Shown piece by piece: positions 11,201 to 62,836 of a stretch of 64,000 bases of DNA. A program made the position numbers and the translations under genes. Location: positions 372,001 through 436,000 of the forward strand of contig JAQGDQ010000140.1 of assembly GCA_030141605.1 (NCBI GenBank). Reading direction: 5' to 3'. The notes beneath the pieces are model-generated. The model was given only the letters and a program-made list of their open reading frames with translations, had not been told where the DNA came from and searched no databases. Position 1 is the stretch's first letter, and every line of letters starts with the position of its first letter. This DNA comes from Tubiluchus corallicola (Eukaryota > Animalia > Priapulida).

Positions 11201-14200
11201 GCTGTTTAGGCAGGGAATATTAGGCATAGAAGTTTAGAGCATGGTTACGTATTGGAATGTTTATCAGCATATGAGAGCTATGATTGATTTAAATGGCATA
11301 TGGCAGCCATGATTGACTTAGATGTTGAGATGCAACATGTTATGTTGTTGTGTCTGTTCAAACGCCCCCTGACGTACCCACGTAGTATTCTGACAGTTAA
11401 CTAAATGTTCTGGTTAGACATTTTATTCTGCATGTTTTTGTCTCATAATCCATTCACTGTTTCTGTTACTACTACTGCTGCTGCTGCTAATTACCAATCA
11501 TTCATTTAGTCAATGATGCTTTTGCTAATTATCAGTTTCATTGGCTTGTACAAAATTTACATTTTTCAGGTCAGTATGGGGCACCCTTATTTAATGTCAC
11601 TGCTTTTATTGCGTGTCTTATTGGAACAATCTTATCAATATTAGATTCAATCGCTGATTATTATGCTTGTGCAAAAATATGTCATGTGCCTCCGCCACCA
11701 TCTCACGCAGTAAATCGTGGTTTGACCATTGAGGGAGCATGCAGTGCTTTATCTGGTGCTGTAGGGTGTGGTCACGCTACAACAACCTATGCAGCCAACA
11801 TTGGGGCCATGGGTTTGACTAAGGTATGCATGTGATTCTTGCATATTCATTATTTCCTATTGATTTTGTACATGGAATAGGTTATATTATAATTCAAAGT
11901 AGCTTCAACAACTTTGACTGTCCATTTCGAACTGTGCATGCTGTTCACTTTGTATCTTACTGTCATTTTCCCATTATTGCTTATAACTGTATCTTTTGAA
12001 TAGAGTATATACCTTAGACATATTGTAAAATAGCATTTTGACCTGAAATGAAGTCGTGTGGTTCTTCTGGTGTTGATGAATAGAGCATCTTCATGACCAT
12101 TAAACATATTAAATTTATAACTGTTTTATTTATTTTCAAGTCGTGAAACAACACGTTCACAAGTGCTCCATTTTGTCAGGTTGCAAGTCGTCACGTGTTT
12201 GTGGCTGTCGGCATCATCTATATGCTCTTTGGTGTGATTGGTAAGTTTTCTGCAGTCTTCATCACGATTCCCCATCCGGTGCTAGGTGGCGCACTCATTA
12301 TCATTGTTGGAGCATTTATTGGAGTGACATTTTCAAATCTGGAGCATGTATCCTTGTCTTCCTCCCGCAGTCTCACGATCATCGGCACGTCGCTTGTTGT
12401 TGGCTGGATGGTGCCGTACTGGATAGAAACTGTGCCTGATGCTATCAATACGGGTAAAAGATGAATTTCTAGATACTATTTCATTTTTTAATAACTTGAA
12501 ATATGAAAGATTTAAGTGGATGCCCTATGTTGTTGCTTTTCTGTATTGCTGAGCCTAATTGCTCATAATTGAAACCTGCACTATATATAAAAAATGGGAG
12601 GAAACAGATAAAATTTGTCATTTTTAGAATTAGCCTTTTTTGCCTTTTTTGAAGTAGTAAATGGGAATGAAAATTGTTGATGACAGTAATATTCTGTACA
12701 AGTAATTCTGTAGGTAATGTTGATCTAATGGCAAAAATAGCGTATTTTGGAGCATTGATCTTTATAGCTTTTCACTGTGACGTATCTTTATTGTTCATAT
12801 CCTTAGATTTACTGTAATTTGCATTCATATTTTGATTATTCATCACTGTTCATTCGTCAATCACTGGTTAACTTCATTCATCAAGCGCCAAACAAGTTTG
12901 TTTAATTCGAATTTGATTTAAACATTCAAATTCGATTTGAACCTAAAATTATGAGTTTGAATAATTCAGCACTTCAACTACATACGTTCTTTATCTTTTA
13001 AAGTTTGAAACAGCATGCATAATTAACACATTTAGCTATGATTTCAGTACACAATTTTTATACAAATTATTAGTGTTTTGTTTCAGAACAAAATTGCGCA
13101 ATATGCATTATCCTTGGAAGACAGCATTTTATTATATAATTAGAAATTCTTTATCATTGAATTCTAATTCGATTCAGATTTGAAATCTTGTTTCATTTTG
13201 AATTCGAAAATTAAAAATTCGATTCCATTCAAATTCGCTTTCTGGTAGATAATGCTCATCATAACTGCTCAGTACATTGAACTCATTCTATTTAGGTAAT
13301 GCAGCAGCAGATAGTGTACTGAAGATGTGTTTGGGCAATGCCAATTTGGCTGGTGCCATCCTTGCTTGTATACTAGACAATACTGTACCAGGTATTATAC
13401 CAGCTTCTCCATTTTTTTTCATAAGTGAAGACAAGGGCTTGTTTTTTGTTTAAAATGACAAAAGAATGCTTACACTCTTTCCTTTTTTGTCAAAAAGAGG
13501 TGACACCACAAGTTTTCTGTATTATAGGATCATGTGACAGTGTTTACATTAGTTGTGACACCATGTACTAAATCTAGCATGGTTTTCATGCTAGTACCAA
13601 TAGCCTGACATTCCTTTTGAACTCCCACGAGCATGCAAAGTTGTTTCCCACTTTCACTGGGTTCCCTACTTTGAATTCACATTTAACCATTGCAGTTTTA
13701 TGCCTATTGTAATTGTTTAGGCTCAGCCATTTAATTCACCTTGTTCTTCAACCTAGGCAGGCTCCACGTCGCATAACTAATAGTATTTTCTATGGTAGCT
13801 GGTTCTGAGTCTTGTTGAATTTACATCATGTGGCTAATAATGTCTTGTTTTCTAACATTTATCTAATAATTTCACCTACAGTGGTTCCATTCTCATCTAG
13901 AATTTCAAATTGACATTTCATTCCGGCATTTCGTTCGTTGTGTGAAGTGTAGAGAGCAGTATTCATCTAGTCTCTTTTAAATGTGAAAGATATTTTTCCA
14001 CGTTTTTGTTTCTTTGATAGGTACAGATGAAGAAAGAGGAATTACAGCTTGGAGAACAGTGCATGTGGCATCCGACACAAAGCATTACGAGGAAGGGCTG
14101 GAAGTGTATGAGCCTCTTCTTCCCAAGTTCATCAAGAGAAGTCGTTGGCTCAAATATGTGCCATTTTTACCCGATCCAGCCCTTACTTCACACATTTATG

Positions 14201-17015: not shown

Positions 17016-36989
<19,974 letters not shown>

Positions 36990-44176: not shown

Positions 44177-45295
44177 AATATTGGATTTTACAACAAAATA
44201 TCTTTATTACCTTGTAACGTGCCATGTAGATTGCTATCAGGACAAGCTGTTCAACTGCGTTCACATACGCATGCACACACACGCGCACATACACATTAGG
44301 AAAGCCTAACATCTAATTAATTGAGGAAGGAAGCACTGAAAAATTGCAGACTGACCAGGATTTGAACCCAGCACCTCACTGCTTACATAGTAGATTGTTC
44401 ACACGCACATGAAGTACAGTGTGAACTGATTAAATATGTTTGTATAGATATATTGTAATTGGGTCAATATTACTATATAAAGCTGAACACAATGCATGCC
44501 CTAGAATAGATTAAATCTATACTTGTTGATGTTTACCAGATGAAGCACAGAAGCAAACGTTACCATGGCATTTCTTTTTAGCAGAACATCGTGATCATTG
44601 TGATACCTGCTTAAATAAGAACTTGTATGCTAGAAATAACAATAAATAGCAATAACATGTTTCTCAAGAAATAATTAGCTATGTTTACTATGTATTTCTC
44701 TGATGTTTTTCTCAAAATAAAGTAATGGCCATTCACCATTCTTAGTCTCTTGTCTGTAAACAGTGCAGTACGAAAAAGCTCTAAGACGAGCAGCCCTTAA
44801 TTTCCCATTTACATCTTATTTCCAGGGGTATATGCATGCGCATAGGTGTTGGCTAATTATAATAAATCACTTTATATTGTTCTATTAACATACCAGTCTT
44901 CAACATTTCTCTCTTGTCTAAACTAGACAAATTCAGGTCAACATAAAACTGTTATCTTCTTTCAGTGTTGGTGCAAGATGCTAAAATGAGGATAAACATT
45001 TTGTCTTGACATTTACACAAATAACAAAATAACAGTAACAATGACTTCATTTTTAATTGCTTGTTATTTTTGTGTGTTTACCAGCCACAACATGCTGTCA
45101 ATTCGCATTTTTGCGTAAGTTAATGAAAATTTTGCAAATTTTCTCTTTTATTAAATTGACCACATAAACACCTGCTATAGTTACTTTAAAGCAGTTGCTG
45201 ACAGAAACGTGGGAAATAAAGGTATAATTTTATAACCTTTTTGGTTGGTAATTGCAGATATTGTGCTAGCACAGATAAAATAACTTCCGAAGAAG

Positions 45296-48200
45296 ATGGC
45301 TTCCACATTGTTGAGAGCATTGTTACGTGCCACAACTGTGCGCTATCTAACAGCAGGGCGATGCAGTGTTTTAGAGAGACACGTGGCTCCCTTTAACAGG
45401 ACTATTTTGCGAAATCTTGGAGAGGTTAAGTTGAGAAGCTATACCACAAAAGCCAGAGCAGCGAATGCCGATACTGAAGGTATTATATGATTATTGTAGC
45501 GCAGCTTCTAGTGCTATTCAGATCTCATGTCTTTCAAATTTCTTAGTGAAATACTGAGAAGTTTTGTTAATTTTCACTTAATCTGTATGACATTATGAAT
45601 TTTCTATTATGTAAAGGTGAACTTATGATTGGCTTGCAAAAGAAATAGTAAAAAATGTTCTAAATCTGGATTTGAACCAGTGGCTTTCTAGCAGGTATTC
45701 TTGCCAACTCTATTGCATTTTTGGCAACTTCTAAGCGAGAGGCACAGGTTTCAGAATCTGGCAGTGGAATGATTTTTTTATTCATTTTTTCCATGCTAGT
45801 CATAAAATTTCTCCTTAGGATGGAAGACTTATATCATTAATAACTTGATAATCAATCTTGCTTTATTAATTAGTTAGTTAACTAATTATTTTCATTAATA
45901 TGAAAATAAGAGAGTTATATTATTACTATGAAAGTTAGTATGAAATGTAAGTTTAACAAAAGTTCTTGTTGCCATGTGAAAAGGCTAATAACTAGGCTCT
46001 AGTAAGTTGTGGCTAAGTGGTCGCAATGGTACTGACTGTCCATTTCTTTCTGTTATTCACTTGCAATTTACTTGACTGATATTGTACGTGTGCCACAGTC
46101 AGTTATGTCCGGTCTACTACAGCTGAAATCGTGCATATATCATATGTCTGATTTTCGAATGAATTAGCTTTCATGACTGTGGGTAGTGTAGAAAACAAAT
46201 TGTTGCCTCTATGTTATTTAGTGAGGTTATCTTATTTGTGCTACTGCAGCACAGCAGAGCACATAGCTCTAATTGGCTCACATATTTTTTCACTAGTTAA
46301 AACATTACGAATTGACCAATGTAATAAAACAGCTTTGTGCACAAGATTTTTTATGATTTTCATTACTTATTTTCAGACATGTTTTGTTTTCAATGTGAAC
46401 AAACCAAGAATCGGAAGGGGTGCACTACGATCGGAGTTTGCGGAAAAACTGCTGAGGTTTCGCACCTGCAAGATTTGTTGACGTACATCTTGCGTGGTCT
46501 GGCCTTGTACGGGCATCGTGTCAACAAGCTGGGCAGACATCTTAATAATGAAGTGTACGATTTTATGTACTCAGCATTGTTCAGGTGAGCAAGTACTTTA
46601 GAACTTCCATGATCCCTTTAATGAGTATTTTAAAGTTGCTTAGACCTGTTCTTTTAGAGTGAGCATTAAATTATAGATCATAGTTTTATATTACCCATTC
46701 ACGTTGTATGCCAACGTATAAGAGACTATCAGCGTATGTTTTACAATAATCCATTGTGTGCCAATGTATATGTTACACTGACTAATTCTGTTATTTGCAC
46801 ACCAATAATACATACCACAGTTTGCATATTCTTTGTGAATGATGATGAACTGCATGCATCACAGCAATGTAGCCATCAAATTACTGCAATAAATGCTAAT
46901 ATGAGTAGATATTGTAAGTTCATTTAATTAATTTAATTTGGTACAAATGTTCTCTGATTAAATTCATTGGAATTGTTTTGGTATGTAACTTGACATATTA
47001 GCAGCAACAGCTGTAGTAGTTTATGATTCAAGTAGTTCTGAAAATTTTATGAATTAGCATTCAGAAATTTTAATTAGTACAATATATAGTGTGATCAAAC
47101 ATGAGAATGTGGCAGTGACAATAAAGTTCGATGATCATAATTCAATTGGTGCTCTCTAAAATACTTATACATTCTGCTTAAAGTCTGTCTGGCACAATTA
47201 ATTATCCAAATTATTCTATATTGTTCCAAATTATTTAAATTATTCTAAATTATTCCAAATTATCTAAATTATTATTCTTATTTCAAACAATGGAATTAAG
47301 GAGGAACTAGATTTATTGACCATCACATTTATTGTCACGCATCATTCTACGCCGCTCGCTTGCTTGGACACAACTTCAATATCATGCTTCGTGAATTTTA
47401 AGAAATCTGTAGACGAAGTTTTCTGTTTTTTTGGATCTGGTTTAAATCTTTTAAAACTGCTCGAATTCTGTGGTAACATCTGTCCAAAATGTTCACTAGG
47501 CTTATTTTGGGTAACTATTTCCAAAAAGAAAACAGCGTTTTTGTTTGTTTATTGTTCTGCTTGTGTTAATTTTACTTTTGTTTCTTTTTGCAGCACACTA
47601 ACAAATGTGAACTTTGACCCAGATAGGTTTCTTGTCTACATTTCTGAGGCACTCAAACACAGGGATGCTGTAAAAGAACTATATTTTTCTACTTGCAAGG
47701 TCAGACTTAATATAATTATAATAAAAATACTTGACAATTACCTTTATCACATCAGTTTAATATATCACACTAGTAATTTACACTTCCATTCCTATTCACT
47801 GATGATTGGATCTGTCTCATTTTGATTTATCTTATAAAGAACAGACCTTAAAGTAAACAATGACAAGACATTATATTAAGAAATGCTCGTGTCATAAACA
47901 GACCATAACAGTTTCACCATAAAATGACTAACGCTGTCATTCTGCTTAACTGAATTTAGCTTATACATGTGTCATAAATCTGTGAGAGTATGAAATTCCT
48001 TTCACGTGCTTTTAAACACTAATTGTCTGAAAACGGTTTACCTCGTAGGAACAAGGAGCAAAACCTGAAGCATTTCCTGAAGGTCCAGCCACATATCGCC
48101 CTCCTGCGGAAGATGTACATACTCTTGCAGAAGAAGGTAAGTCACAGGAAGAGTTACTTATTGTGGATAATAAATGAACAATTTTACTTTTAAAAAAAGG

Positions 48201-51200
48201 AAAAGTACTGTGGATTCTATAACTGTAGAAAACTTTGTAGAAATGGAAGAGATAGCTTCTTCATTTGTTGAGCAATGATACCAGTTGGTCGCATATAAAA
48301 TGTTATAACAAATTCCTTGTAAGCCGAGTCATTTTTTTATACAGTTTGGCGTGTTGCAAACTGGGATCATGCACTTAATGACATGGTCTGCTCAGTGTTG
48401 CTGTTTGTGGCAGGACCAGAACTCATCAAGGAAAATCCGTTACGAGCAAACACTGAACTGACTTGATATATATTGTCCTCTAAACAAATTGAATATTTAT
48501 ATAGCGTGGCAGTTGAGACACCTCAAAACAGTACTGAACCCATCGGTCATGTGTCCATTCACTAGCCAGGTTCGCATTGATTAACTTCATACACTCGTAG
48601 TCATTTGGTTAAAAATATATGAATGTCTTTATTAAAAATATTAAAAGCGTTTTACTTTGAAAACGACATCAGGACTAGAAGTTAATAAGTATATTGCACT
48701 GGCAGTCGTTTTTAAATTGAAATGTAATCATGATTTTGTTTTAAATAATCAGTTTTAATACTCTAAATAAGGACGATTCACTAAAGTGGCTTTTACATCT
48801 TTGGCAGGTAAGAAATTTGGACTGCGCCTTGAAGAAGCCATTTACGGAGCAGATTTGCATGGAGTTCGGCAGATGATTATCTTTGGCTTGAAGGGAATGG
48901 CGACTTATGCCAGACATGCAGCTTTGCTGGGACAAGAGTCACGAGACATTTCTGCATTTGTATTTGAGGTAACTATTTGCAAAAGGTTGCATTTCATTTT
49001 ATGTGGGTGGTGTGCTATGGTGTGGGTGGCAATACATATATATATATATATATATATATGCAAGTAAAATCAATAATATAAATTAAATGAAAGATTGTGT
49101 AAAATATTAAAGATGATTTGCTTTGCCAATGTATGACTGTTTGACTATTTCCATATTAACACTTGTTTTCCATGTCTACACTGGTTTCAATATCAACACT
49201 AGTGTTGTTGTATGGCGTAGGAGGTGTGGTGCGGTGTGGATGGTGTGTTATGATTGGTGCAGTGGGTTAGTGTGGATGGTGTGTTGTGAGTGGGGCGTGG
49301 GTGGTTGTGTGTTGTGAGTTTATGCACAAAATTCTTTTTGCAGGTTGGCCAGTTATTAATTGATTACACACACTAATCACATCATCAGATCTCATAAAAG
49401 TAATCGTATTTGATCTGGTCATTTAGCTTCTTCCTTTGCTCTCACACAGAAATGGCTGTTTTGCTGAAAGATCTTTGTAAAAGTTCGTAAAATTTCAAGA
49501 CTACCAGCTGCTGATGATGTACGGTTAAACCAACTTGGTTCCGTGCCATTCAGTATCGATCAGCAGGATTAAAGATTTTCAGTTTAAGATTTTGTTCACA
49601 GCAGTTGCATCATTGCTATTGCTGTATTTAAGGAACTAAAGTTACAAAGCATAGTAGTACTGAATAACTGTGATTTAAATTGTAACTGATATTGCATGCA
49701 GAGGAAAATAATTACGTGGATATTTCAATATAAATATATCGAATAGATCAATATGTTGGTAAAACAGCCTGGCGTGTTTTTTCTGAAAAGTCATTTTATA
49801 AGTTTGATTCTCTGGCAGTATCGTACCAAAAAAAAACTTCAAAAATGTCAATCCTATTGAGCATAATCCATCTAAACTGCTACTGATCCTTCATATCAAT
49901 TCAGCACATCAGTAAAAGTAGTGTGAGTATAGAAACTGCCAGCAGTATATGATAACTATTCCGTAAGTTAACATTACGAATGAACATTTGTTTAGCTCAT
50001 GCTTTACGAACAGCTGTCAATAATCAGACAGGCAGCCATCTTTTCCATTCATGGTACTCCCCAGTGAAGAACTTTATAATGAGTTGAATGATTTCTACCG
50101 ATTTTTGTGAAAAACATTTAGGCAGTCGATTTCTTAGAAACTAGTGCAGAATCTGACAGGACCAATTTGGCCACGAACCTGGGATTGGCTTTGCGGGTTG
50201 GTGAAGTAAATTTGAAAGGCATGGAACTGCTGGACAAGGGTCATCGTGACCAGTTTGGAACTCCATCTCCCCACGAGGTCTCAACAGCTCCTGTGCCTGG
50301 AAAGGTATAATTTGAAATTTCTGTCATTGGTTCCTGATCTTTGTCTTTTACTTCTTGTTTTAATTGAAAACTTGATTGCATGATATAATAACTGCAAGAA
50401 TTAGTAAGGAGATCAATGGTTGGGGTAACTTCCTGCATTTCTGATGAAGATATGTGGTCTCAAGCTATTTTTATCAATATTTATGATTCAAAGTGAATTA
50501 AATTTTTGAAAATTTTACAAAATCCCGAAAATTTTACAAGATTTTTCAGAAGAATGGTATCTGCAAGCACACTGCAAACTAGAATCTAACACTCAATGGT
50601 AAGGTCTACGCAAAGCTGATATTTGTGGCAAAACAGGATCCTGGCTCAATATAAAGGCTAACATTCTAAGATGAGGCACTAAAATATGACATGAAAGACA
50701 TATTTCTATTCAACTAGGACTACAAAACTAATTTACATAGTGAGAGACTGGTGAATGACTGGTGAACACTAGTCTCTCACTACGTAAATTAGTTTTGTAG
50801 TCCTAGTTGAATAGAAATATGTCTTTTATGTCATATTTTAGTGCCTCATCTTAGAATGTTAGCCTTTATATTTAGCCAGGATCCTGTTTTGCCACAAATA
50901 TCAGCTTTGCGTAGACCTTACCATTGAGTGTTGGATTCTAGTTTGCAGTGTGCTTGCACTAAACTCCACAAAAAGGATTATTTTGTTTCTTTGAAGGAAG
51001 TTAACAGCCAAGCGTTAAACGTATTCATAGTACTATCACTACCTATTACTGTGCATTCAGATTAGTGAGTTTCTGATACGAGTTTCCTCCGTGACAGCAA
51101 TCTCACACGTGTGAACTGCTTTGTGAGTTACTGTTGGCAAGTTATTGCAAATTCTGTAACAGGTGCTGCGAGTTGATTTCCTACAAGCTAGTATGAATGC

Positions 51201-54200
51201 CTTGTCGAGTTAACTCTCGACACTTCGGAGATTAACTCGCAGCAAGATTTGTTCTCTAGTCTGATCACGCTTGGAAATTACTTGGCGAGTGACTGAGCAA
51301 GTTCACAAGACCTGAAAACTCGCTAATCTGAACGTGCCATTAGACATGAATGTGCTCATGAAAAGTGATGCATTTTGTATCATGCGATATCTTCGAGAGT
51401 CACTTTCCTAGGAGCTGTACGTTTTAATAATAGCTCGATTATAATTCTTCTTTTCCTTTATCGTTTAAGGCGATCCTTGTGTCTGGCCATGATCTTGTTG
51501 ATCTTTTGGCTGTACTGAAAGCTACTGAGAAAACTGGTATCAATGTTTATACACACGGAGAGATGCTGCCAGCTCACGGATATCCCAAATTGCGCAAATA
51601 TAAGGTAAATTCATTAAGGTTAGTCTAGGCTGATGTGGTCGCATGACCAAGATAGCAAAAGTTGTTGCCTTTTGTGATCTAGATATTGTAGTATGAAAAT
51701 CTGTCATCACGGTATTATGTTAGACATGTTATGGATTGACGGTGCTGTTATAGAAATTTCATTGCTTCTTACTTGAGAATGTCATATTTGTTACATTGTT
51801 AGAATACAATTGTTTTTTTTTATATATCATATTATTTTCAATAAAAGAAGCAAAAAACAAAATGGTTTATTCAAAAATTTGAATTGCATAGAATACAGTT
51901 TGTCTATACATTCAGAGCGCTGAGTTCAAATTAGCTCAAGTTTTTGCAAATTCCATTCCTTGAGTTTAATTTGGCTAAAGAATTTGATGATTTGTCGCTA
52001 ATCACTGCAATCTCTCAGAATCTGGTGGGACATTTTGGAGGAGCTTGGATGCTGCAGAAATTTGAGTTTCCGAGATTTCCCGGTCCGATCGTCGTGACAA
52101 CAAACTGCATCATTGAACCACATCACTCGTACAAGGACAGACTTTTCACCCTAAACGATGTCGGGTGGTCAGGTAATTTCATTAATTAAATTGTTCATGA
52201 CAAATATTTATCTTATAAATTGTGATTACCATCCTTTACAAAATGTCGGAGCTGTTAACTTCTCTTCATAAACATTTGGACAACACCTGCACGAGTAACA
52301 ACAGCAAAATGGAAAAAGTTGTGTACTGTAAAAGGTTCATTATCGTGACCTAAGAATTACACGCAAATTTTGTTGTTGTTTGCTGACATAATTTGTGTTA
52401 ATGTTACATAACCTTGTTTTGTTACATATCCATATAAAATTGAAATTGTCACTTGATGAGAATTCCCCATTTGTTAAAGGCTGTAAACACTTGGATTTAT
52501 CACGTGACGATCACATGGCAGACCTGCTGTCCTCTGCTATGAGCTGCGAAGGCTATACTCGGGAGTTTTGTGATTCCTACAAAGACAGAGACGGGAAGTT
52601 GACTGTAGGATTTGGGCACGACTTCCTGCTTGCTAATGCCGGAAAGGTATGCATGTCTCAAAATGTTGTTGATTGTAGACACTGTTTTTAAAAAGGAAAT
52701 TAGAAAATGAAGCATATCACTACAGTATTTTTACAACTTTTTACCTTCATGAGTTTATGCAAAAAAGGTAAATATCCACCATTGTGAATGCCTGCAGTCA
52801 ACTGGTCCAATTTCTGGTATTAAATTAGAGCGTGTTTTATAGATATTTGCTTATTTTGTGATTTTAATAAAGTTTGCTTTTAGAAATAATAGTGAAATGT
52901 GCTTCATATCATATCACTATTGCTGGGTACTCACACCCACTTGTTGTTTTGTTTTAATCCCAAGTAATTATATTGGTGAATTAATATAATTTTGACTGTA
53001 ATCTTACTCTTGAAGCAACAGGGACAGATTACATATTGTTTGTGCACACCCTTAAAGTAATTTTCGAGGAGGCCAAGCATTCAGGGTATTTTCATTTATG
53101 TTTTAAATCTCACATTTTGCTGTAACGGTTTGATCTGTAAAATAGATTATGTATTACACTTGCATCATTTTTTTGCTTTAATGTTCTAGTTTATTGTGTT
53201 TATTGTGACATGTCATAATTGTCGAAAACACTACACAGTTACGGCACATTCAGACTATCAAGTTTCCTCTAGCGAATTCTCTCTGAGAGTAAACACGCAA
53301 GTGTGAACGGCTTTGCAAGAACTGTCTTGAGTTTTGCTGAGTGTAAACTCATGCTTACTGTTGGAGAGAATTTGCAGCAACTCTTGGGAAAGTTCGCAAA
53401 AACTTACCGGCAGAACTTGCAAAACCGTTCACGCTTCTGAGTTTACTCTCAGAATTTACTCGTCTGTCAGAGTAAGATACCCAACTTGGAATCGATCCCA
53501 CAACTTCTCAGATAGGAAGTAGTTACTTATAAATTATTTACACACTGTAACAGTTTTACTGTATATAATGTACACAGGTTACAGCACAAATGTTTGTTCT
53601 TAAACTAAAAAGAATAGCAAAGAATGACTTGGATGCTATGCTAACACTGACATGTAGCTCATGTTTTTTCACTTTGTATACATTTCAGGTAATAGATGCA
53701 GTAAAAAGTGGAGGACTTAAAAGAATTTTTGTTGTGGGCGGATGCGATGGCTCAGAAAATCGTAGAAGTTATTACTCCACACTTGTAGAAAGTTTACCAC
53801 AAGATACAGTCGTATTGACCTTGGGCTGTGCCAAGTACAGGTGAATTTTTACTTTACATATATTATATTGTATTATATTGTAACTGTGGGAAATGTTTTT
53901 CTAGTTTTTGTGTATAAGTGTATTGCGTTTTATTGCTTTGAGTAATGCAGTTACTTCATTGTTTCCGACTTCAATGATCTTAACCCACTTAAGACTTGTT
54001 CAAAGTTGTATTGTTAGTATAGGTCAGATCAGATTTCAGTTCAATGCTGTAATTTCTTGCTTATCAAATATCTGTTGCAACACTAGCATCACAGTAATAA
54101 CTTCTATGAAAAGATGTTTGCTAATTTTGAACTATTTGCAGCCACCCATTGCTTATCTTACAAATGTTTTAGCTGCTGCTGTTTAATAAGAATTTAAAAG

Positions 54201-55074
54201 CACTGTATTTGATTGATGGTGAAAGGCTGTCAGAATTGTATATGAAGCTTTGCAATCCTGGTAGCATAAAGTCATTGAGCATTCTCGTCAACATCATTTT
54301 GAGGAAAATGTGTTGCCGAGTAGCAAGGTGCTCTGATTGGTGACTAGTCAATCGTAGTTAAGAACTGTTGTTCCAAGGCTTCTTGGGTGAACTGCTTCAA
54401 AAAATACTCGTTGTTGGTGGTTTTAGTAGCCATACTGTTTCTTGCTGTTTGCCTCATAGAGTGTGTGTGTGTGTATTCACCTCCGAATGATGCTAAGATG
54501 GTCAGTGACATCATCTTACAGACACCTTGGCAAAGAGTCATGTTTCATGAAAATCCAGTTAAGTAGGACTGTGTTGTTGCACACCAGTTTCTAGCTTGCT
54601 GCATGTCAGGTCGTATAAGGAAACACAACACAGTTGATTAAACTGCAAGCAGACGAAGATGTAGAGAAGTAATTGAAAAAGTTATTGTACAAATTGCTTT
54701 CATTCTACAGGTTTAATTACAAAGACCTGGGCATGTTAGGTGAGTCAGGAATCCCTCGCTTGCTGGACATGGGACAATGTAATGATGCATATGGAGCTGT
54801 GGTCGTCGCTTCGGCTTTAGCTGATGCTTTCAACACCGATGTCAACTCTCTGCCTATATCCCTTGCTATTTCCTGGTTTGAACAGAAAGCTGTTGCTGTC
54901 CTGTTGACTCTGCTTCATCTGGGAATCAAGAACATTCGACTGGGTCCCAAATTGCCGGCTTTCCTGACACCCAATGTGTTGAGAATTCTTGTAGACAAAT
55001 ACAACATTCAACCTACAGATAATCTACATCCACTTGATGACATGAAGTTGATGATGGAGCAGAAAGTTGGGTAA
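45296..55074 (+). CDS. hcp: Hybrid cluster protein (HCP / prismane / hydroxylamine reductase) with predicted mitochondrial presequence; 11 coding exons, 633 aa
   Basis: Exons 45296-45479, 46377-46584, 47594-47699, 48049-48136, 48808-48968, 50122-50304, 51470-51604, 52019-52172, 52480-52646, 53689-53840, 54711-55074. All introns are GT-AG and the total of 1902 nt is open. Motifs: [23 protein letters not shown] (Cx2Cx8Cx5C cubane), [112 protein letters not shown]. An in-frame TAA upstream of the ATG fixes the start. Confidence 0.96.
50562..50958. repeat. Long near-perfect inverted repeat (2 x ~192-bp arms, 13-nt spacer)
   Basis: 50562-50753 is the reverse complement of 50767-50958, with about five mismatches by manual comparison. 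It lies in hcp intron 6. Confidence 0.95.
51051..51338. mobile_element. MITE with ggcacgttcagattagcgagttt-type termini
   Basis: Left gtgcattcagattagtgagttt vs right aaactcgctaatctgaacgtgcc. A related copy starts at 53243. Confidence 0.65.
53243..53466. mobile_element. Related palindromic MITE relic in hcp intron 9
   Basis: Begins ggcacattcagactatcaagtttcc, similar to the 51051 element. Internal inverted arms ctctgagagtaaacacgcaagtgtgaacggctttgcaag / cttgcaaaaccgttcacgcttctgagtttactctcag. Confidence 0.6.
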
Positions 55075-58000: not shown

Positions 58001-60856
58001 GTAGTTTCATCGCTTATTAGCACTAAAATATGCAAAGTAATTTAGAGCAAAACTACTACAGAGTTTTAAACATTTTGTCTGAACGCATTTCGCAAAAACG
58101 GCGCACACACTACATACAGTGAAAATAAACTTCCTGCTATATATACATTACATATACTACAACTATAGTTATTAAAACAAAGTCAGCGTCAGTAAACAAA
58201 CTCACCATTGAGATTCATAATGCTGCCATCTATACAAGGATAACCAAACTAATAGAATAGTTACAGTAGTTAATCATTTCTGTAATCACACATAATTGTT
58301 TTAATGCAAAACGCTGCCGCACTAGTGACCAACGTACATTAATAAGGTAGTTGCATTTTGAATAAAGCAAATCTTAGTCTGATACGCCTGCACAAAACTC
58401 AAATATTGAACAATTTACAGAATCTGTAGTCAGCTGAATATGACGACTGTAATGTCTCTCACAGTCAAATGAACAATATTAACATTTTTTTAAATGTATA
58501 TCATTAAATTAAATAACAACCTATGAACTAAAAACTATTACTTCTCTTGCAGCAACTGCACTACCTGTATACAAAAGTAAAGTCCTACAACAATGCAAGA
58601 GCAAGTGTAAGCAATGCAGACTTCTGTTATCTCCAAAACAGCAAGCGATTAGCTCTTATATATTTCATTTTTTTATATTGACTGAGGAACAAATACTATC
58701 ACACAAATTACAAATCCACTGTGCAGTTAAAAGAATAAAATACAACCGTTTTTTATTATAGTTACATTGGAACAGAGCAGGCTATTAAGAAACAGGCATA
58801 TGAAATAAAACTGTTGTCTTTAAATTACATTTTCTAGACAATATCAAGAAAGACAATATGATCAGCTTAATCAGAAGACAAGAAAGTGGATGATGATCAC
58901 AAATTCAGAATGTAATACAGTAGACTACGCATAATTTGGCTCTGCGTAAATCGGAATATTGTTCATCTCAGACACACTCGGCGGAATGGATTTGTTTCTA
59001 TATATCTGAATTCGCTTTATCGAGCAAGTCGGACAGTTTCGTTGGCCCCTAGCCATCCGAAAGTTTACTGTACTCTCCCTATCTCATAGCGCTATGAACA
59101 ATGAAACAAACAATGAAAGCTTATGCAGCTAGGCTAAAGCTATACATACTCGTCACACATCCAGCCTCCGCTTGGGTATTAGTTACTTACCTAAGTAAAA
59201 TTTATAAACATGGCAAGTTCATCTATATTCCTAACACATAAAAATAATTAGTGGAAATAAACAATGAATAAAAAACCCTGCACTAGAATTACATATCCAG
59301 TATACACTAGTAACAGTTACTTAATAATATAATATATACATAATATAACACTTTGTTTAGCCAAGAACTGAGGAATTCGATGTAAATGTTAGCATTGCAC
59401 GAAGTATTGTTCAACGCATTGCACATAATGCGAATAACATTATCCTTTCTTACAACACCACCGGTAAATGTCACAACAGCTAACTGTGGTTAATATATAC
59501 AGGCTTGTTCTAAACTGTGTTATCATTAACATACAACAAAAAGTTCAAAAAATAGAGAAAATAAATTTACATGAAACACAAACGCATCTCGTATAAAAAC
59601 AAAGCAAATGTTCAGTAAAAGGAATGTCTTTAATTGTTTCCGGGACAGTTAAGTAAGTGAACATGCTGCAGTTAAACAAGTGAACATGCTATCGTGAGTG
59701 AGACTGCATCACCATTATGCTTTCTGACAAAACAACGTATCTGAAATCGACTCCACTATTGAAAGTTCACTAGCAGAAGACACTCTTTACAACAGAGCGA
59801 AACACACGTGGACCTCAGACACAGTACTTGCATCAGCTTATTCTAAGGGTATCAGCAAATGTGATGCATACATAACCTAACCTATTGGCTGGAACGAAGC
59901 TGGATCAATTCCAAAACACTTTTGTACCATTTCTAACTTCCATATCGTTGCACATTTCTGCACTTTTACATAAATTGCACGATGCTCCATGCTGGTGTTA
60001 CTAACCCAAAGAAATTTGGCAGTGTTAGAAAACTGATCAATCAGATCGAATCTGCAGCATCTCGTTTAAACAAATAATTATTTTTAGAAAGACTATGCTC
60101 ACCAGGAAGCATTAAAAGAAAACAACTCGCTAGAAATCTGCGGTACTATTAGAGATTAACGTTTACATCTTCTACGCTAATGAATGCTTAAAAACAGGAT
60201 AATGATTTAACAACACAAATATATACATGTACAGCTTTATACCGTCAAGGCCACATGTCAACATCTGTTATTAGTTTTATCTACATTCACACATCGTTAT
60301 TCTAAATGACCACAGACATAGGCGAAGATCACATAACATGCAGAGATGAAAAGTTAGGGATGACCGAGGAAAATTAATTAAATAAACCCAACGTCGTAAT
60401 AGTATTTTACCATTACACTTGTAATTATTATTATTATAAACGATAATAAACTTTACACATTTATGTTTCCAGACTAAGCAAATATCACCTTACATGCAAT
60501 GAAAATGGATATAATGGACTAAGTGTTTAGAACTGTTTTTAAGAATTTTATAACATTGCTCACAAAGTGAATAAGCTATTAATCCAATAATAACACCTAA
60601 GTTATATAATTTTTTAAATTTCTATCGCGAATAAGAAATACTTAGATTCGAGAAGCTTATCATGTAAAGACATTTATATCGAATTACTGATAGCATGCAC
60701 TATACGTCACAGTAATAAAAGTTTTATTTTGAAACACTATGTAGGACTTAGCGTCCACGCAGTCTGACAGCAAAGAGAAACGCTTGCTCAATGGTCACAC
60801 ATCTGTCTAAGCCGGAAAAGTCTACCAATTTACCACAATTTGCAGTTCAGTTAGCC

Positions 60857-61051
60857 TCAGACAGGTGTGGCTGCCGAGGGTGCACTTGTCGTGGGCACGC
60901 TTTCGCCCGACGGACGAGAACCGTGCATAAGGGAGAGACGTTTTGCTTGCAGATGAGTCACAACGTTTTGCAAGGAAGGATTGTTTGCTAGTTGACTTGT
61001 TTCGTATCGGTTCGAATCTACTCCCATGCGAAATGCGTTAACAACGCGAAT
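60857..61051 (-). CDS. ATP2B: Terminal coding exon of a plasma-membrane Ca2+-ATPase (PMCA); most of the gene lies beyond the right edge
   Basis: A strong minus-strand acceptor (cttcttttctttctttcag) is followed in phase 0 by IRVVNAFRMGVDSNRYETSQLANNPSLQNVVTHLQAKRLSLMHGSRPSGESVPTTSAPSAATPV*. IRVVNAFR is the second half of the PMCA calmodulin-binding helix at splice site C. The terminal TPV is a class I PDZ-binding motif, as in PMCA b-type tails. Confidence 0.85.
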   Translation of the reverse strand: MRVVNAFRMGVDSNRYETSQLANNPSLQNVVTHLQAKRLSLMHGSRPSGESVPTTSAPSAATPV

Positions 61052-62812
61052 CTGAAAGAAAGAAAAGAAGCTGGAAATCAGGAAGTTTTTTTGTCAAAAA
61101 ATGTTCATCCTGAAATGTTTATTTTAAGCAAAAACGTGAAGAATCGTCAATTGTTTGCAAAGGTTAAAAGCAAAAACCAATCATGATTAACAATATTGCT
61201 AAGAATCAACACAATATTTTACTAAACTTAAAATTTAATTATTACAAACATGTTAAACCTCTTACTGAAATATCAAAAAATTAAAAATCACAACGAAGCT
61301 TTATAGACCCAAAAAATCTTTCTGAACAATGCTCGGCCATCTCTGATTGGCCCATTAGATCATTTTACAAAATGGTAGAAATTAACTAATGTTTAGACAC
61401 TAAATGTTAGAAAACATGGCATTTTGCAACAGTGGATGCACACACGGGTTAACAGTGAAAACTGAACGGTCTCAATAGACCTAGAATTCATTGCAAACAA
61501 TAGATTACAAAACAGTTACAGTGAATGAAGATGAATTAACGATGCACTGATTCCTATTGTAGATCAATTAATTTAAGTGCAAGACACAAGTGTGTACACT
61601 GGGACAAGGGTATCAGTTGGGACGAAAGATTAGTCAGACAGAGACTCAAACACCTGCCTGAACTGACCACACAAGTGCTCGTCGTAAAAGCAGAGTAACC
61701 AAATTAAAACTATTTAGCCATATTTGCAAATTATCAAACGGGAAATTTCTGTGACAGTTTATAACGTCATGAAGCGAAATTTAATACGTTAACATTCTTC
61801 CTGACTTTCATTTAGCAGTTTATTTAATGCATTTTACTTCATTTGCCAGCTGAATGAATGACTTACTTTTTTACACAGAGTAACGTTAGAATTCAAAATA
61901 CTCAAATAACTATTTTAAACAAAAAAAATTACCCTCATATACGATATGAAAATCATCCAAAACTAACTACACTATTAAAATGCTTCTTATATTAAGCAAA
62001 ACACTCTTACAGAGGTAAAGACTACTACTTCATAATGCCCATCTAATGCTCTTAATGCATCTCACTGCTCAAACTTGTAAAAATGCAGTATTGGTAAAAA
62101 TATTAGTCTTATTACATGCATATCATATTCAGGCATTTCTGAATAACTAGAAAAAGACTAGAAGAAATAAGTCAAGATATTTCAGTTGTTAAAAGACATT
62201 AAATACTGCTTAGGAAGTACTACTATATAGTTATATGTGTACTTCAAAATGCACGAAACCAAAACATTTCTACTAAGTAGAAGATAACATGTCATAGAAA
62301 ATGTATTTCAGTTACAGGCATGCTTAGGTCAAAGTTCAAGTACACCTTTGCCTTCCCTCATAAGACAAGCAGTATAAACATGACATATTTAAGATAAACA
62401 GTATATAAAAAATGCTAATAACTACTAGGGAACACAAAGAAACGATACAAAAGCAGATAAAAGAGGTATTGCCGCCATAGCAAGAGCTTAGCAAGCCAAG
62501 CTTCATAAATTTCTAATAGGTCACTGACAATAGGTTTACATACAAAGTGCTGACATGATGTTTCTGCCATTTTAAAATTTTAAACTCATGTAAAAGTTGC
62601 ATCGAAGAATATGAACTTTAAACATATAGTTCAAATTTGTGAACTCAAGTAAGTGAAAATGTTTATGATCAGCACATATTTTGCAGAAAAAGCAGTTGCT
62701 TAAGACAAACGCAGATCTTGAACGGCAGAAATGTCAACAAGAGATTTGGCTTATGCACATATATGGTAAAAAGAAAGTAAAACGGGGCGCATGCAATACC
62801 AGGGTTATGTAC

Positions 62813-62836
62813 CTGTGTCTGTATCATTGCAATCGC
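62813..62836 (-). CDS. ATP2B: Candidate 24-nt phase-0 microexon of PMCA (AIAMIQTQ)
   Basis: The minus strand reads ggttttcttacag|GCGATTGCAATGATACAGACACAG|gtacat. IQTQ is the sequence that directly precedes IRVVNAFR in PMCAs. A TGCATG lies in the downstream intron (62790-62795). Confidence 0.65.

Follow-up and report, generated by a model that had tools for sequence, protein, structure and literature searches.

Does an animal carry, in its own nuclear genome, a gene for hybrid cluster protein (HCP), and if so, how old is the gene and what might its product do? The question is raised by a 64,000-nucleotide stretch (hereafter the window) of contig JAQGDQ010000140.1 of the priapulid Tubiluchus corallicola, in which a preliminary description made from the letters alone had recognized an intron-containing HCP gene (hcp). 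Here we describe this gene, its relatives among animals and a possible role in mitochondria.

Structure, class and probable expression of hcp

The gene spans positions 45296-55074 on the + strand in 11 exons, and all ten introns (307-1165 nt) are of the GT-AG type. Joining the exons by coordinate with a script gives a coding sequence of 1902 nt and 633 amino acids (aa) with a single terminal stop and none internal, in agreement with the gene model first proposed. The exons are as follows.

Exon 1, 45296..45479, + strand: ATG and an Arg-rich, acid-poor presequence of about 61 aa (predicted mitochondrial targeting) with an R-S-Y-T cleavage-like motif
Exon 2, 46377..46584, + strand: the Cx2Cx8Cx5C motif of the [4Fe-4S] cubane (C65, C68, C77, C83); flanking introns 1 and 2 are common to other animals
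Exon 3, 47594..47699, + strand: STLTNVNFD, in the helical N-domain
Exon 4, 48049..48136, + strand: followed by intron 4, whose position is common to a bivalve-clade gene
Exon 5, 48808..48968, + strand: one contig of run X6 runs from it into exon 6 (see below)
Exon 6, 50122..50304, + strand: joined to exon 5 in the same contig
Exon 7, 51470..51604, + strand: hybrid-cluster ligands H317 (SGHD) and E341 (THGE)
Exon 8, 52019..52172, + strand: ligand C385 (TTNC)
Exon 9, 52480..52646, + strand
Exon 10, 53689..53840, + strand: persulfide-type C481 (GGCDG) and C509 (LGCAK)
Exon 11, 54711..55074, + strand: C536 (GQCND), E570 and K572 (WFEQK), and the stop codon

All 12 cluster-binding residues are present, with ligand roles assigned after the known HCP structures. 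The eight HCP motifs listed in the preliminary description were all recovered in the spliced protein, and they line up with those of Desulfovibrio vulgaris HCP (1e2u) in a full-length alignment made via the orthologue of the annelid Owenia. That orthologue is 65% identical to the window protein and matches nine exons of the window gene by tblastn. The eight motif groups are kept in all 26 proteins of the animal clade (described below) that were checked. Two siboglinid tubeworm HCPs (P0239 and P0241) sit on a long branch and have WMEQK in place of WFEQK, with the ligands kept.

Profile searches assign the gene to the same family. The window protein was scanned as single exons, exon 4 being outside the scan, and seven of the ten pieces match Pfam Prismane (PF03063) in collinear order; exons 1, 3 and 9 are without a match. 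The HCP models TIGR01703 and PRK05290 are likewise matched collinearly by the window exons. Whole-protein scores come from four named orthologues, all of which exceed the cut-offs of these two models (361 and 367 bits) with 644-685 bits and fail the carbon monoxide dehydrogenase (CODH) model TIGR01702, at 38-48 bits against a cut-off of 478. The fold was compared on an AlphaFold model of the Owenia orthologue (pLDDT 80) rather than of the window protein. It matches 1e2u with a TM-score of 0.91 by target, and a structure search with it returned HCPs at E values of 1e-49 to 1e-36 and CODH at about 1e-17 with a TM-score near 0.5.

The cubane spacing Cx2Cx8Cx5C, found in 26 of 26 animal-clade proteins, is that of class I, as had been suggested from the window protein alone. 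The class II spacing of E. coli (Cx2Cx11Cx6C) is absent from the window protein and was found in six proteobacterial loci only, and the N-terminal domain is full-length in the alignment to 1e2u, unlike class III. Judged by these features, the window gene is an intact class I-type HCP gene. Class I HCPs of D. vulgaris and D. desulfuricans (1e2u, 1gn9) and of Methanothermococcus (8cnr) have the same spacing and ligand set, a full helical N-domain (TM-score 0.88-0.91 to the Owenia model) and, like the window gene, no adjoining Hcr reductase. The animal gene differs in being nuclear, with ten introns and a 62-aa presequence, and identity is about 40-42% (Owenia model). The class II Hcp-Hcr of E. 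coli (7de4), the source of the proposed activity of reducing nitric oxide (NO) with high affinity, is alike in fold and active-site ligands but has the class II spacing and an Hcr, whereas the window gene has neither the spacing nor an Hcr nearby.

Sequencing run X6, which we guess to be RNA and which is about 90% identical to the window, covers exons 4, 5, 6, 8, 10 and 11 and otherwise only repeats; the lack of listed cover for exons 1, 2, 3, 7 and 9 was not used as evidence. A 353-nt contig joins exon 5 to exon 6, and its letter count equals exact removal of intron 5. The search for spliced transcripts proposed in the preliminary description has thus yielded one exact junction, in a probable RNA run from a relative. 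Between X6 and the window exons, 26 differences are listed away from contig ends, 20 of them synonymous and six non-synonymous, with synonymous sites making up 23% of all sites. The resulting pN/pS of about 0.09 (p = 9e-9) is far from the ratio near 1 that had been named as a warning sign, and indicates that hcp is under purifying selection.

At 48047-48086 and 50213-50250 the same run has loose ends from contigs of a further, more divergent transcript that resembles HCP (about 400 deep vs 29 at 50213-50250); in one of these ends exon 3 seems to pass directly into exon 4. This transcript is a paralogue or stems from a different organism in the sample; more than one HCP record also exists for each of Mytilus, Lingula and Lamellibrachia. 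Upstream of the gene itself, an acceptor-like site at 45250-45260, about 37 nt 5′ of the ATG, suggests a 5′ untranslated intron or a trans-splice site.

Host integration and genomic neighbourhood

Could the locus be a contaminant, a symbiont gene or a pseudogene? HCPs are typically prokaryotic proteins, and DNA contigs of two studies (X1 and X3) cover the locus piecewise, none of them reaching across all of it. Yet the gene has ten spliceosomal introns with host repeats inside them. Its exon GC (0.46) and GC3 (0.43) are like those of neighbouring genes, and the depth of X1 is even across the stretch outside repeats. Furthermore, orthologues lie on chromosome-scale contigs and share introns with it, and selection on it is purifying. 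The chance that the gene is foreign or dead is therefore minute; hcp is a host gene, and the contamination and pseudogene readings are rejected.

The repeats within hcp and the genes around it are the following.

50562..50958, no strand: long inverted repeat in intron 6, with 192-nt arms, 97% complementary, and a 13-nt spacer
53282..53453, no strand: element in intron 9 resembling a miniature inverted-repeat transposable element, with 43-nt arms and high copy in DNA runs
11491-12464 and 33909-36989, + strand: two SLC23-type permease genes in tandem, highly similar, with four of four pieces matching PF00860
23454-24443, - strand: intronless 329-aa G protein-coupled receptor (GPCR) gene of the 7tm_1 family, between the two SLC23-type genes
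60850-61051 and about 62812-62836, - strand: last exon or exons of a gene converging on hcp, for which the label PMCA is unconfirmed

In a DNA run, summed depth reaches 29,863 in the bin 50916-51316 and 13,979 in the bin 52921-53321 against about 170-190 elsewhere, which points to high-copy host repeats in these two bins. The host-type repeats previously claimed for the introns are therefore present, in introns 6 and 9. The inverted repeat of intron 6 recurs in part, at 72%, in intron 4 (48355-48412); next to the adjoining repeat, its copy number in the DNA run is low. Elsewhere within the window, no intron repeat of hcp was found again.

The preliminary description had placed hcp between SLC23 and GPCR genes on one side and PMCA on the other. 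The SLC23 and GPCR part holds (PF00860 and 7tm_1). The PMCA part is unconfirmed: it relies on IRVVNAFR at 61051 (- strand), a PMCA-like calmodulin-binding motif, and Pfam and PDB searches gave it no confirmation. Between 36900 and 45200, reading through the list of open reading frames (ORFs), with no library scan of that stretch, suggested no gene.

Distribution among animals and evolutionary origin

Protein searches (best 120 matches per query) and cluster look-ups identified named orthologues in at least 15 species of three phyla. These are annelids (Owenia, Helobdella, Lamellibrachia and Ridgeia), the brachiopod Lingula and bivalves (five Mytilus species, Sinanodonta, Dreissena, Mercenaria, Mactra and Solemya). 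Many of these lophotrochozoan sequences are auto-annotated as 'hydroxylamine reductase-like'. The claim of a real, host-integrated HCP in this animal stands, but the gene is not peculiar to it, with auto-annotated orthologues in 15 named species.

A tree of 176 rows unites the window protein, the named orthologues and 15 other proteins in a single clade with 27 members (support 1.0), which IQ-TREE recovers at 100/100. Within it the window protein is sister to Owenia, the bivalves form a separate subclade, and P0132 and P0080 are sister to all the rest. HCPs of named cnidarians, ecdysozoans, deuterostomes, gastropods or oysters were absent from the best 120 matches per query. Given the limit of 120 matches and the position of P0132 and P0080, absence outside Lophotrochozoa is unproven.

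Intron positions in other animals were derived from those cluster members that are exon-bounded ORFs called on genomic DNA. Five of the ten window introns (1, 2, 4, 7 and 9) are common to other animal HCP genes, introns 2 and 4 being shared with bivalve-clade genes, and in the Helobdella model an insertion falls precisely at the position of intron 2. Introns 8 and 10 are present in the window gene and missing from siboglinid and P0006-cluster genes. Because introns are shared within a single animal clade, the gene, introns included, existed before the lineages of annelids and molluscs separated, and it goes back to the ancestor of Lophotrochozoa. The auto-annotated orthologues (among them Lingula XP_013419062, Mytilus XP_063395923, Lamellibrachia KAI0213147 and Owenia) are 53-65% identical to the window protein and belong to the same clade, with the presequence and some of the introns. 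Compared with the auto-annotated lophotrochozoan HCPs, the window adds one more species and the intron positions 8 and 10.

Where did the animal gene come from? The nearest Atlas cluster is 79% eukaryotic. FastTree, applied to 332 and to 341 sequences, places the animal clade in nested groups of 31, 82 and 119, none of which contains any of the 77 named prokaryotic HCPs. IQ-TREE separates 38 eukaryotic or other rows from 13 named prokaryotes at 94/94 (SH 96 under a C20 mixture model, run in its quick version only). The prokaryote sample drew on 7 of the collection's 64 parts. A motif filter first removed 12 of 80 prokaryote loci; nine were restored and three, split or partial, were left out. 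Between the trees of 57 and 51 rows we removed the long-branch rows P0319, P0334 and P0313 as well as P0016, P0010 and P0302. Mesostigma is absent from the later trees, and roots were set by outgroup or midpoint.

With this sampling, the animal HCP probably descended from a eukaryotic mitochondrial HCP, with many losses. A single old horizontal transfer into the lophotrochozoan stem, from a protist, an alga or an unsampled bacterium, is the alternative, which we regard as possible but doubtful. The choanoflagellate Salpingoeca and the ichthyosporean Amoebidium supply the top named non-animal matches among those listed, two LG trees make Amoebidium the sister of animals (weakly, at 70/96 and 68/87), and an approximately unbiased (AU) test does not reject animals joined with the Salpingoeca and Amoebidium groups (p = 0.18), a grouping named after the trees had been seen. 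These results, like the nested groups free of named prokaryotes, speak for descent rather than transfer. Direct or recent transfer from bacteria is disfavoured because the nearest relatives are eukaryotic, though the AU test of animals plus prokaryotes does not formally reject it (p = 0.087).

Several results weigh against descent. The same p value leaves animals plus prokaryotes not rejected, while a clade of animals and all sampled holozoans, Pigoraptor included, is rejected (p = 0.017). The main eukaryote group leaves out the HCPs of two named eukaryotes, Pygsuia and Guillardia, and deep eukaryote branches are without support. Vertical descent also implies many losses, since the other animal groups named above were not among the best 120 matches. 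Transfer gains further from the confinement of named HCP-holding animals to Lophotrochozoa among the matches listed, from the long stem to the animal clade (0.25-0.44), from the lack of any intron position common to animals and one amoebozoan-clade gene (whose intron positions are deduced), and from prokaryote sampling that covers 7 of 64 parts.

Predicted mitochondrial presequence and possible function

The window HCP begins 62 residues N-terminal of the cubane motif, a presequence absent from the preliminary description. All 22 full-length, Met-starting animal HCPs have an extension of 55-72 aa with a net charge of +3 to +8 in the first 40 aa; four shorter or partial animal copies are excluded from this count. 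For comparison, only 0.9% of 700 mature 40-mers reach +5, and 65 of 68 prokaryote loci could extend by less than 30 aa. The motif R-x-[YFLM]-[STA] occurs in 7 of the 22 animal extensions and in 37 of 485 control windows. The 11 named HCPs of protists and algae that were checked all have a positively charged extension as well. From this composition test, animal HCP is predicted to be imported into the mitochondrial matrix by its presequence.

This prediction fits the HCP of Acanthamoeba castellanii, which microscopy locates in mitochondria and which increases in anoxia (PMC13632651). HCP is also listed among anaerobe-enriched mitochondrial proteins of the last common ancestor of eukaryotes (LECA; PMC13777428). 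Like animal HCP, the Acanthamoeba protein and Chlamydomonas HCP1-4 (PMC7412212) are eukaryotic and presequence-bearing, and one broad eukaryote group takes in the animal clade together with the HCPs of amoebozoans and green algae (the Acanthamoeba sequence itself being outside the trees). The difference is that the host here is a multicellular animal.

On balance, we favour the reading of animal HCP as a mitochondrial enzyme that reduces NO to nitrous oxide (N2O) when oxygen is scarce. The NO-handling role is carried over from bacterial HCP, for which high-affinity reduction of NO to N2O is the favoured activity, with reduction of hydroxylamine and peroxide as poor side reactions (PMC10210160). 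Everything beyond the gene and its ligands is put conditionally. The protein would be imported into the matrix, where the mitochondrial iron-sulfur cluster (ISC) system would build both of its Fe-S clusters. Electrons from a general low-potential donor, likely a matrix ferredoxin or an NAD(P)H flavoprotein, would pass through the cubane to the hybrid cluster, which would convert two NO to N2O. NO that accumulates in hypoxic tissue and blocks cytochrome c oxidase could thereby be cleared or tuned, HCP acting as an oxygen-independent NO sink beside the very enzyme that NO inhibits. In the clam Arctica, hypoxia leads to NO, by which both cytochrome c oxidase and the respiration of the gill are inhibited, and the nitrite of the haemolymph increases about 8-fold in anoxia (PMC7205294, in which HCP was not studied).

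Regarding the donor, five reductase-domain queries taken from HCP fusion proteins found no Hcr-like or diflavin reductase domain in the window by tblastn, as the preliminary description had stated for Hcr. The electron donor of class I HCPs is described as unknown and probably general (PMC10210160). In other proteins HCP is fused to a P450-reductase-like diflavin module or to other redox modules (P0308, P0309, P0311, P0315, P0317, P0332 and P0341; P0304; P0326 and P0338). The diflavin fusions are seven proteins of about 1200 aa, one cluster including the glaucophyte Cyanoptyche, and the other partners are flavodoxin, or cytochrome b5 with or without a reductase. Such fusions possibly point to eukaryotic electron donors.

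Two other functions have to be weighed against NO reduction. A mitochondrial HCP might mainly be an S-nitrosylase or NO-signalling enzyme that helps to set metabolic depression rather than a sink for NO. Transnitrosylation by E. coli HCP has been reported (PMC10210160), a dinitrosyl intermediate exists (PMC7412212), NO mediates metabolic depression in a clam (PMC7205294), and sequence cannot tell this activity from NO reduction; however, the role is debated and the redox potentials are said not to suit NO oxidation (PMC10210160, PMC7412212), and we consider it improbable. Alternatively, the enzyme could do another redox job in anoxic or sulfidic mitochondria, such as peroxide or hydroxylamine reduction or the handling of sulfur and persulfides. 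Solemya, Lamellibrachia and Ridgeia live in sulfidic sediment or at vents or seeps, which would suit such a job, but a freshwater leech and a freshwater mussel also hold HCP. Measurements on bacterial HCPs have shown both side activities, and one class I HCP is produced constitutively in the absence of NO, but the reported kinetics are too poor to matter physiologically, with millimolar KM and a peroxidase turnover of 0.05-0.17 per s (PMC10210160); this option seems to us rather unlikely.

The favoured role as a mitochondrial NO reductase also has points to its disadvantage. The physiology of HCP is debated, the constitutive class I enzyme just mentioned having no NO source (PMC10210160). No electron donor was found within the window, and X6, being only about 90% identical, represents a relative and not this individual.

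The HCP enzyme, mitochondrial HCP in protists and animal copies as database records are already known. We found no published study of animal HCP, in a search whose coverage of the core HCP papers was incomplete; a clam genome paper mentions the family in one sentence. The text searched of PMC13777428 has nothing on molluscs or annelids; an animal HCP might appear in its Fig. 6B, where Capitella is included, and Helobdella and Lingula belong to its wider set of species. Nothing on animals appears in the excerpt of PMC13198582. HCP has been placed in prokaryotes and 'a few unicellular eukaryotes' (PMC10210160), and an early survey predicted that it is mostly limited to microbial eukaryotes (PMC1484493).

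With a conserved, mitochondrion-targeted HCP in three phyla, animal mitochondria would gain an Fe-S enzyme of the anaerobe type. Such an HCP touches on the question of whether the anaerobic enzymes of eukaryotes are ancestral or were transferred (PMC13777428), and it is open to tests in animals that are as easy to keep as Mytilus. As a bolder and quite tentative proposal, the mitochondria of annelids, brachiopods and bivalves may have kept an anaerobe-type NO reductase unbroken from LECA, with which they make N2O and control the inhibition by NO in hypoxia. If so, other animals would have lost this NO reductase, and these hosts would produce N2O themselves. Invertebrate N2O emission is usually attributed to gut and shell microbes; the host may have a share in it. 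For hypoxia-tolerant clams and worms, animal HCP offers a candidate host enzyme for the control of NO.

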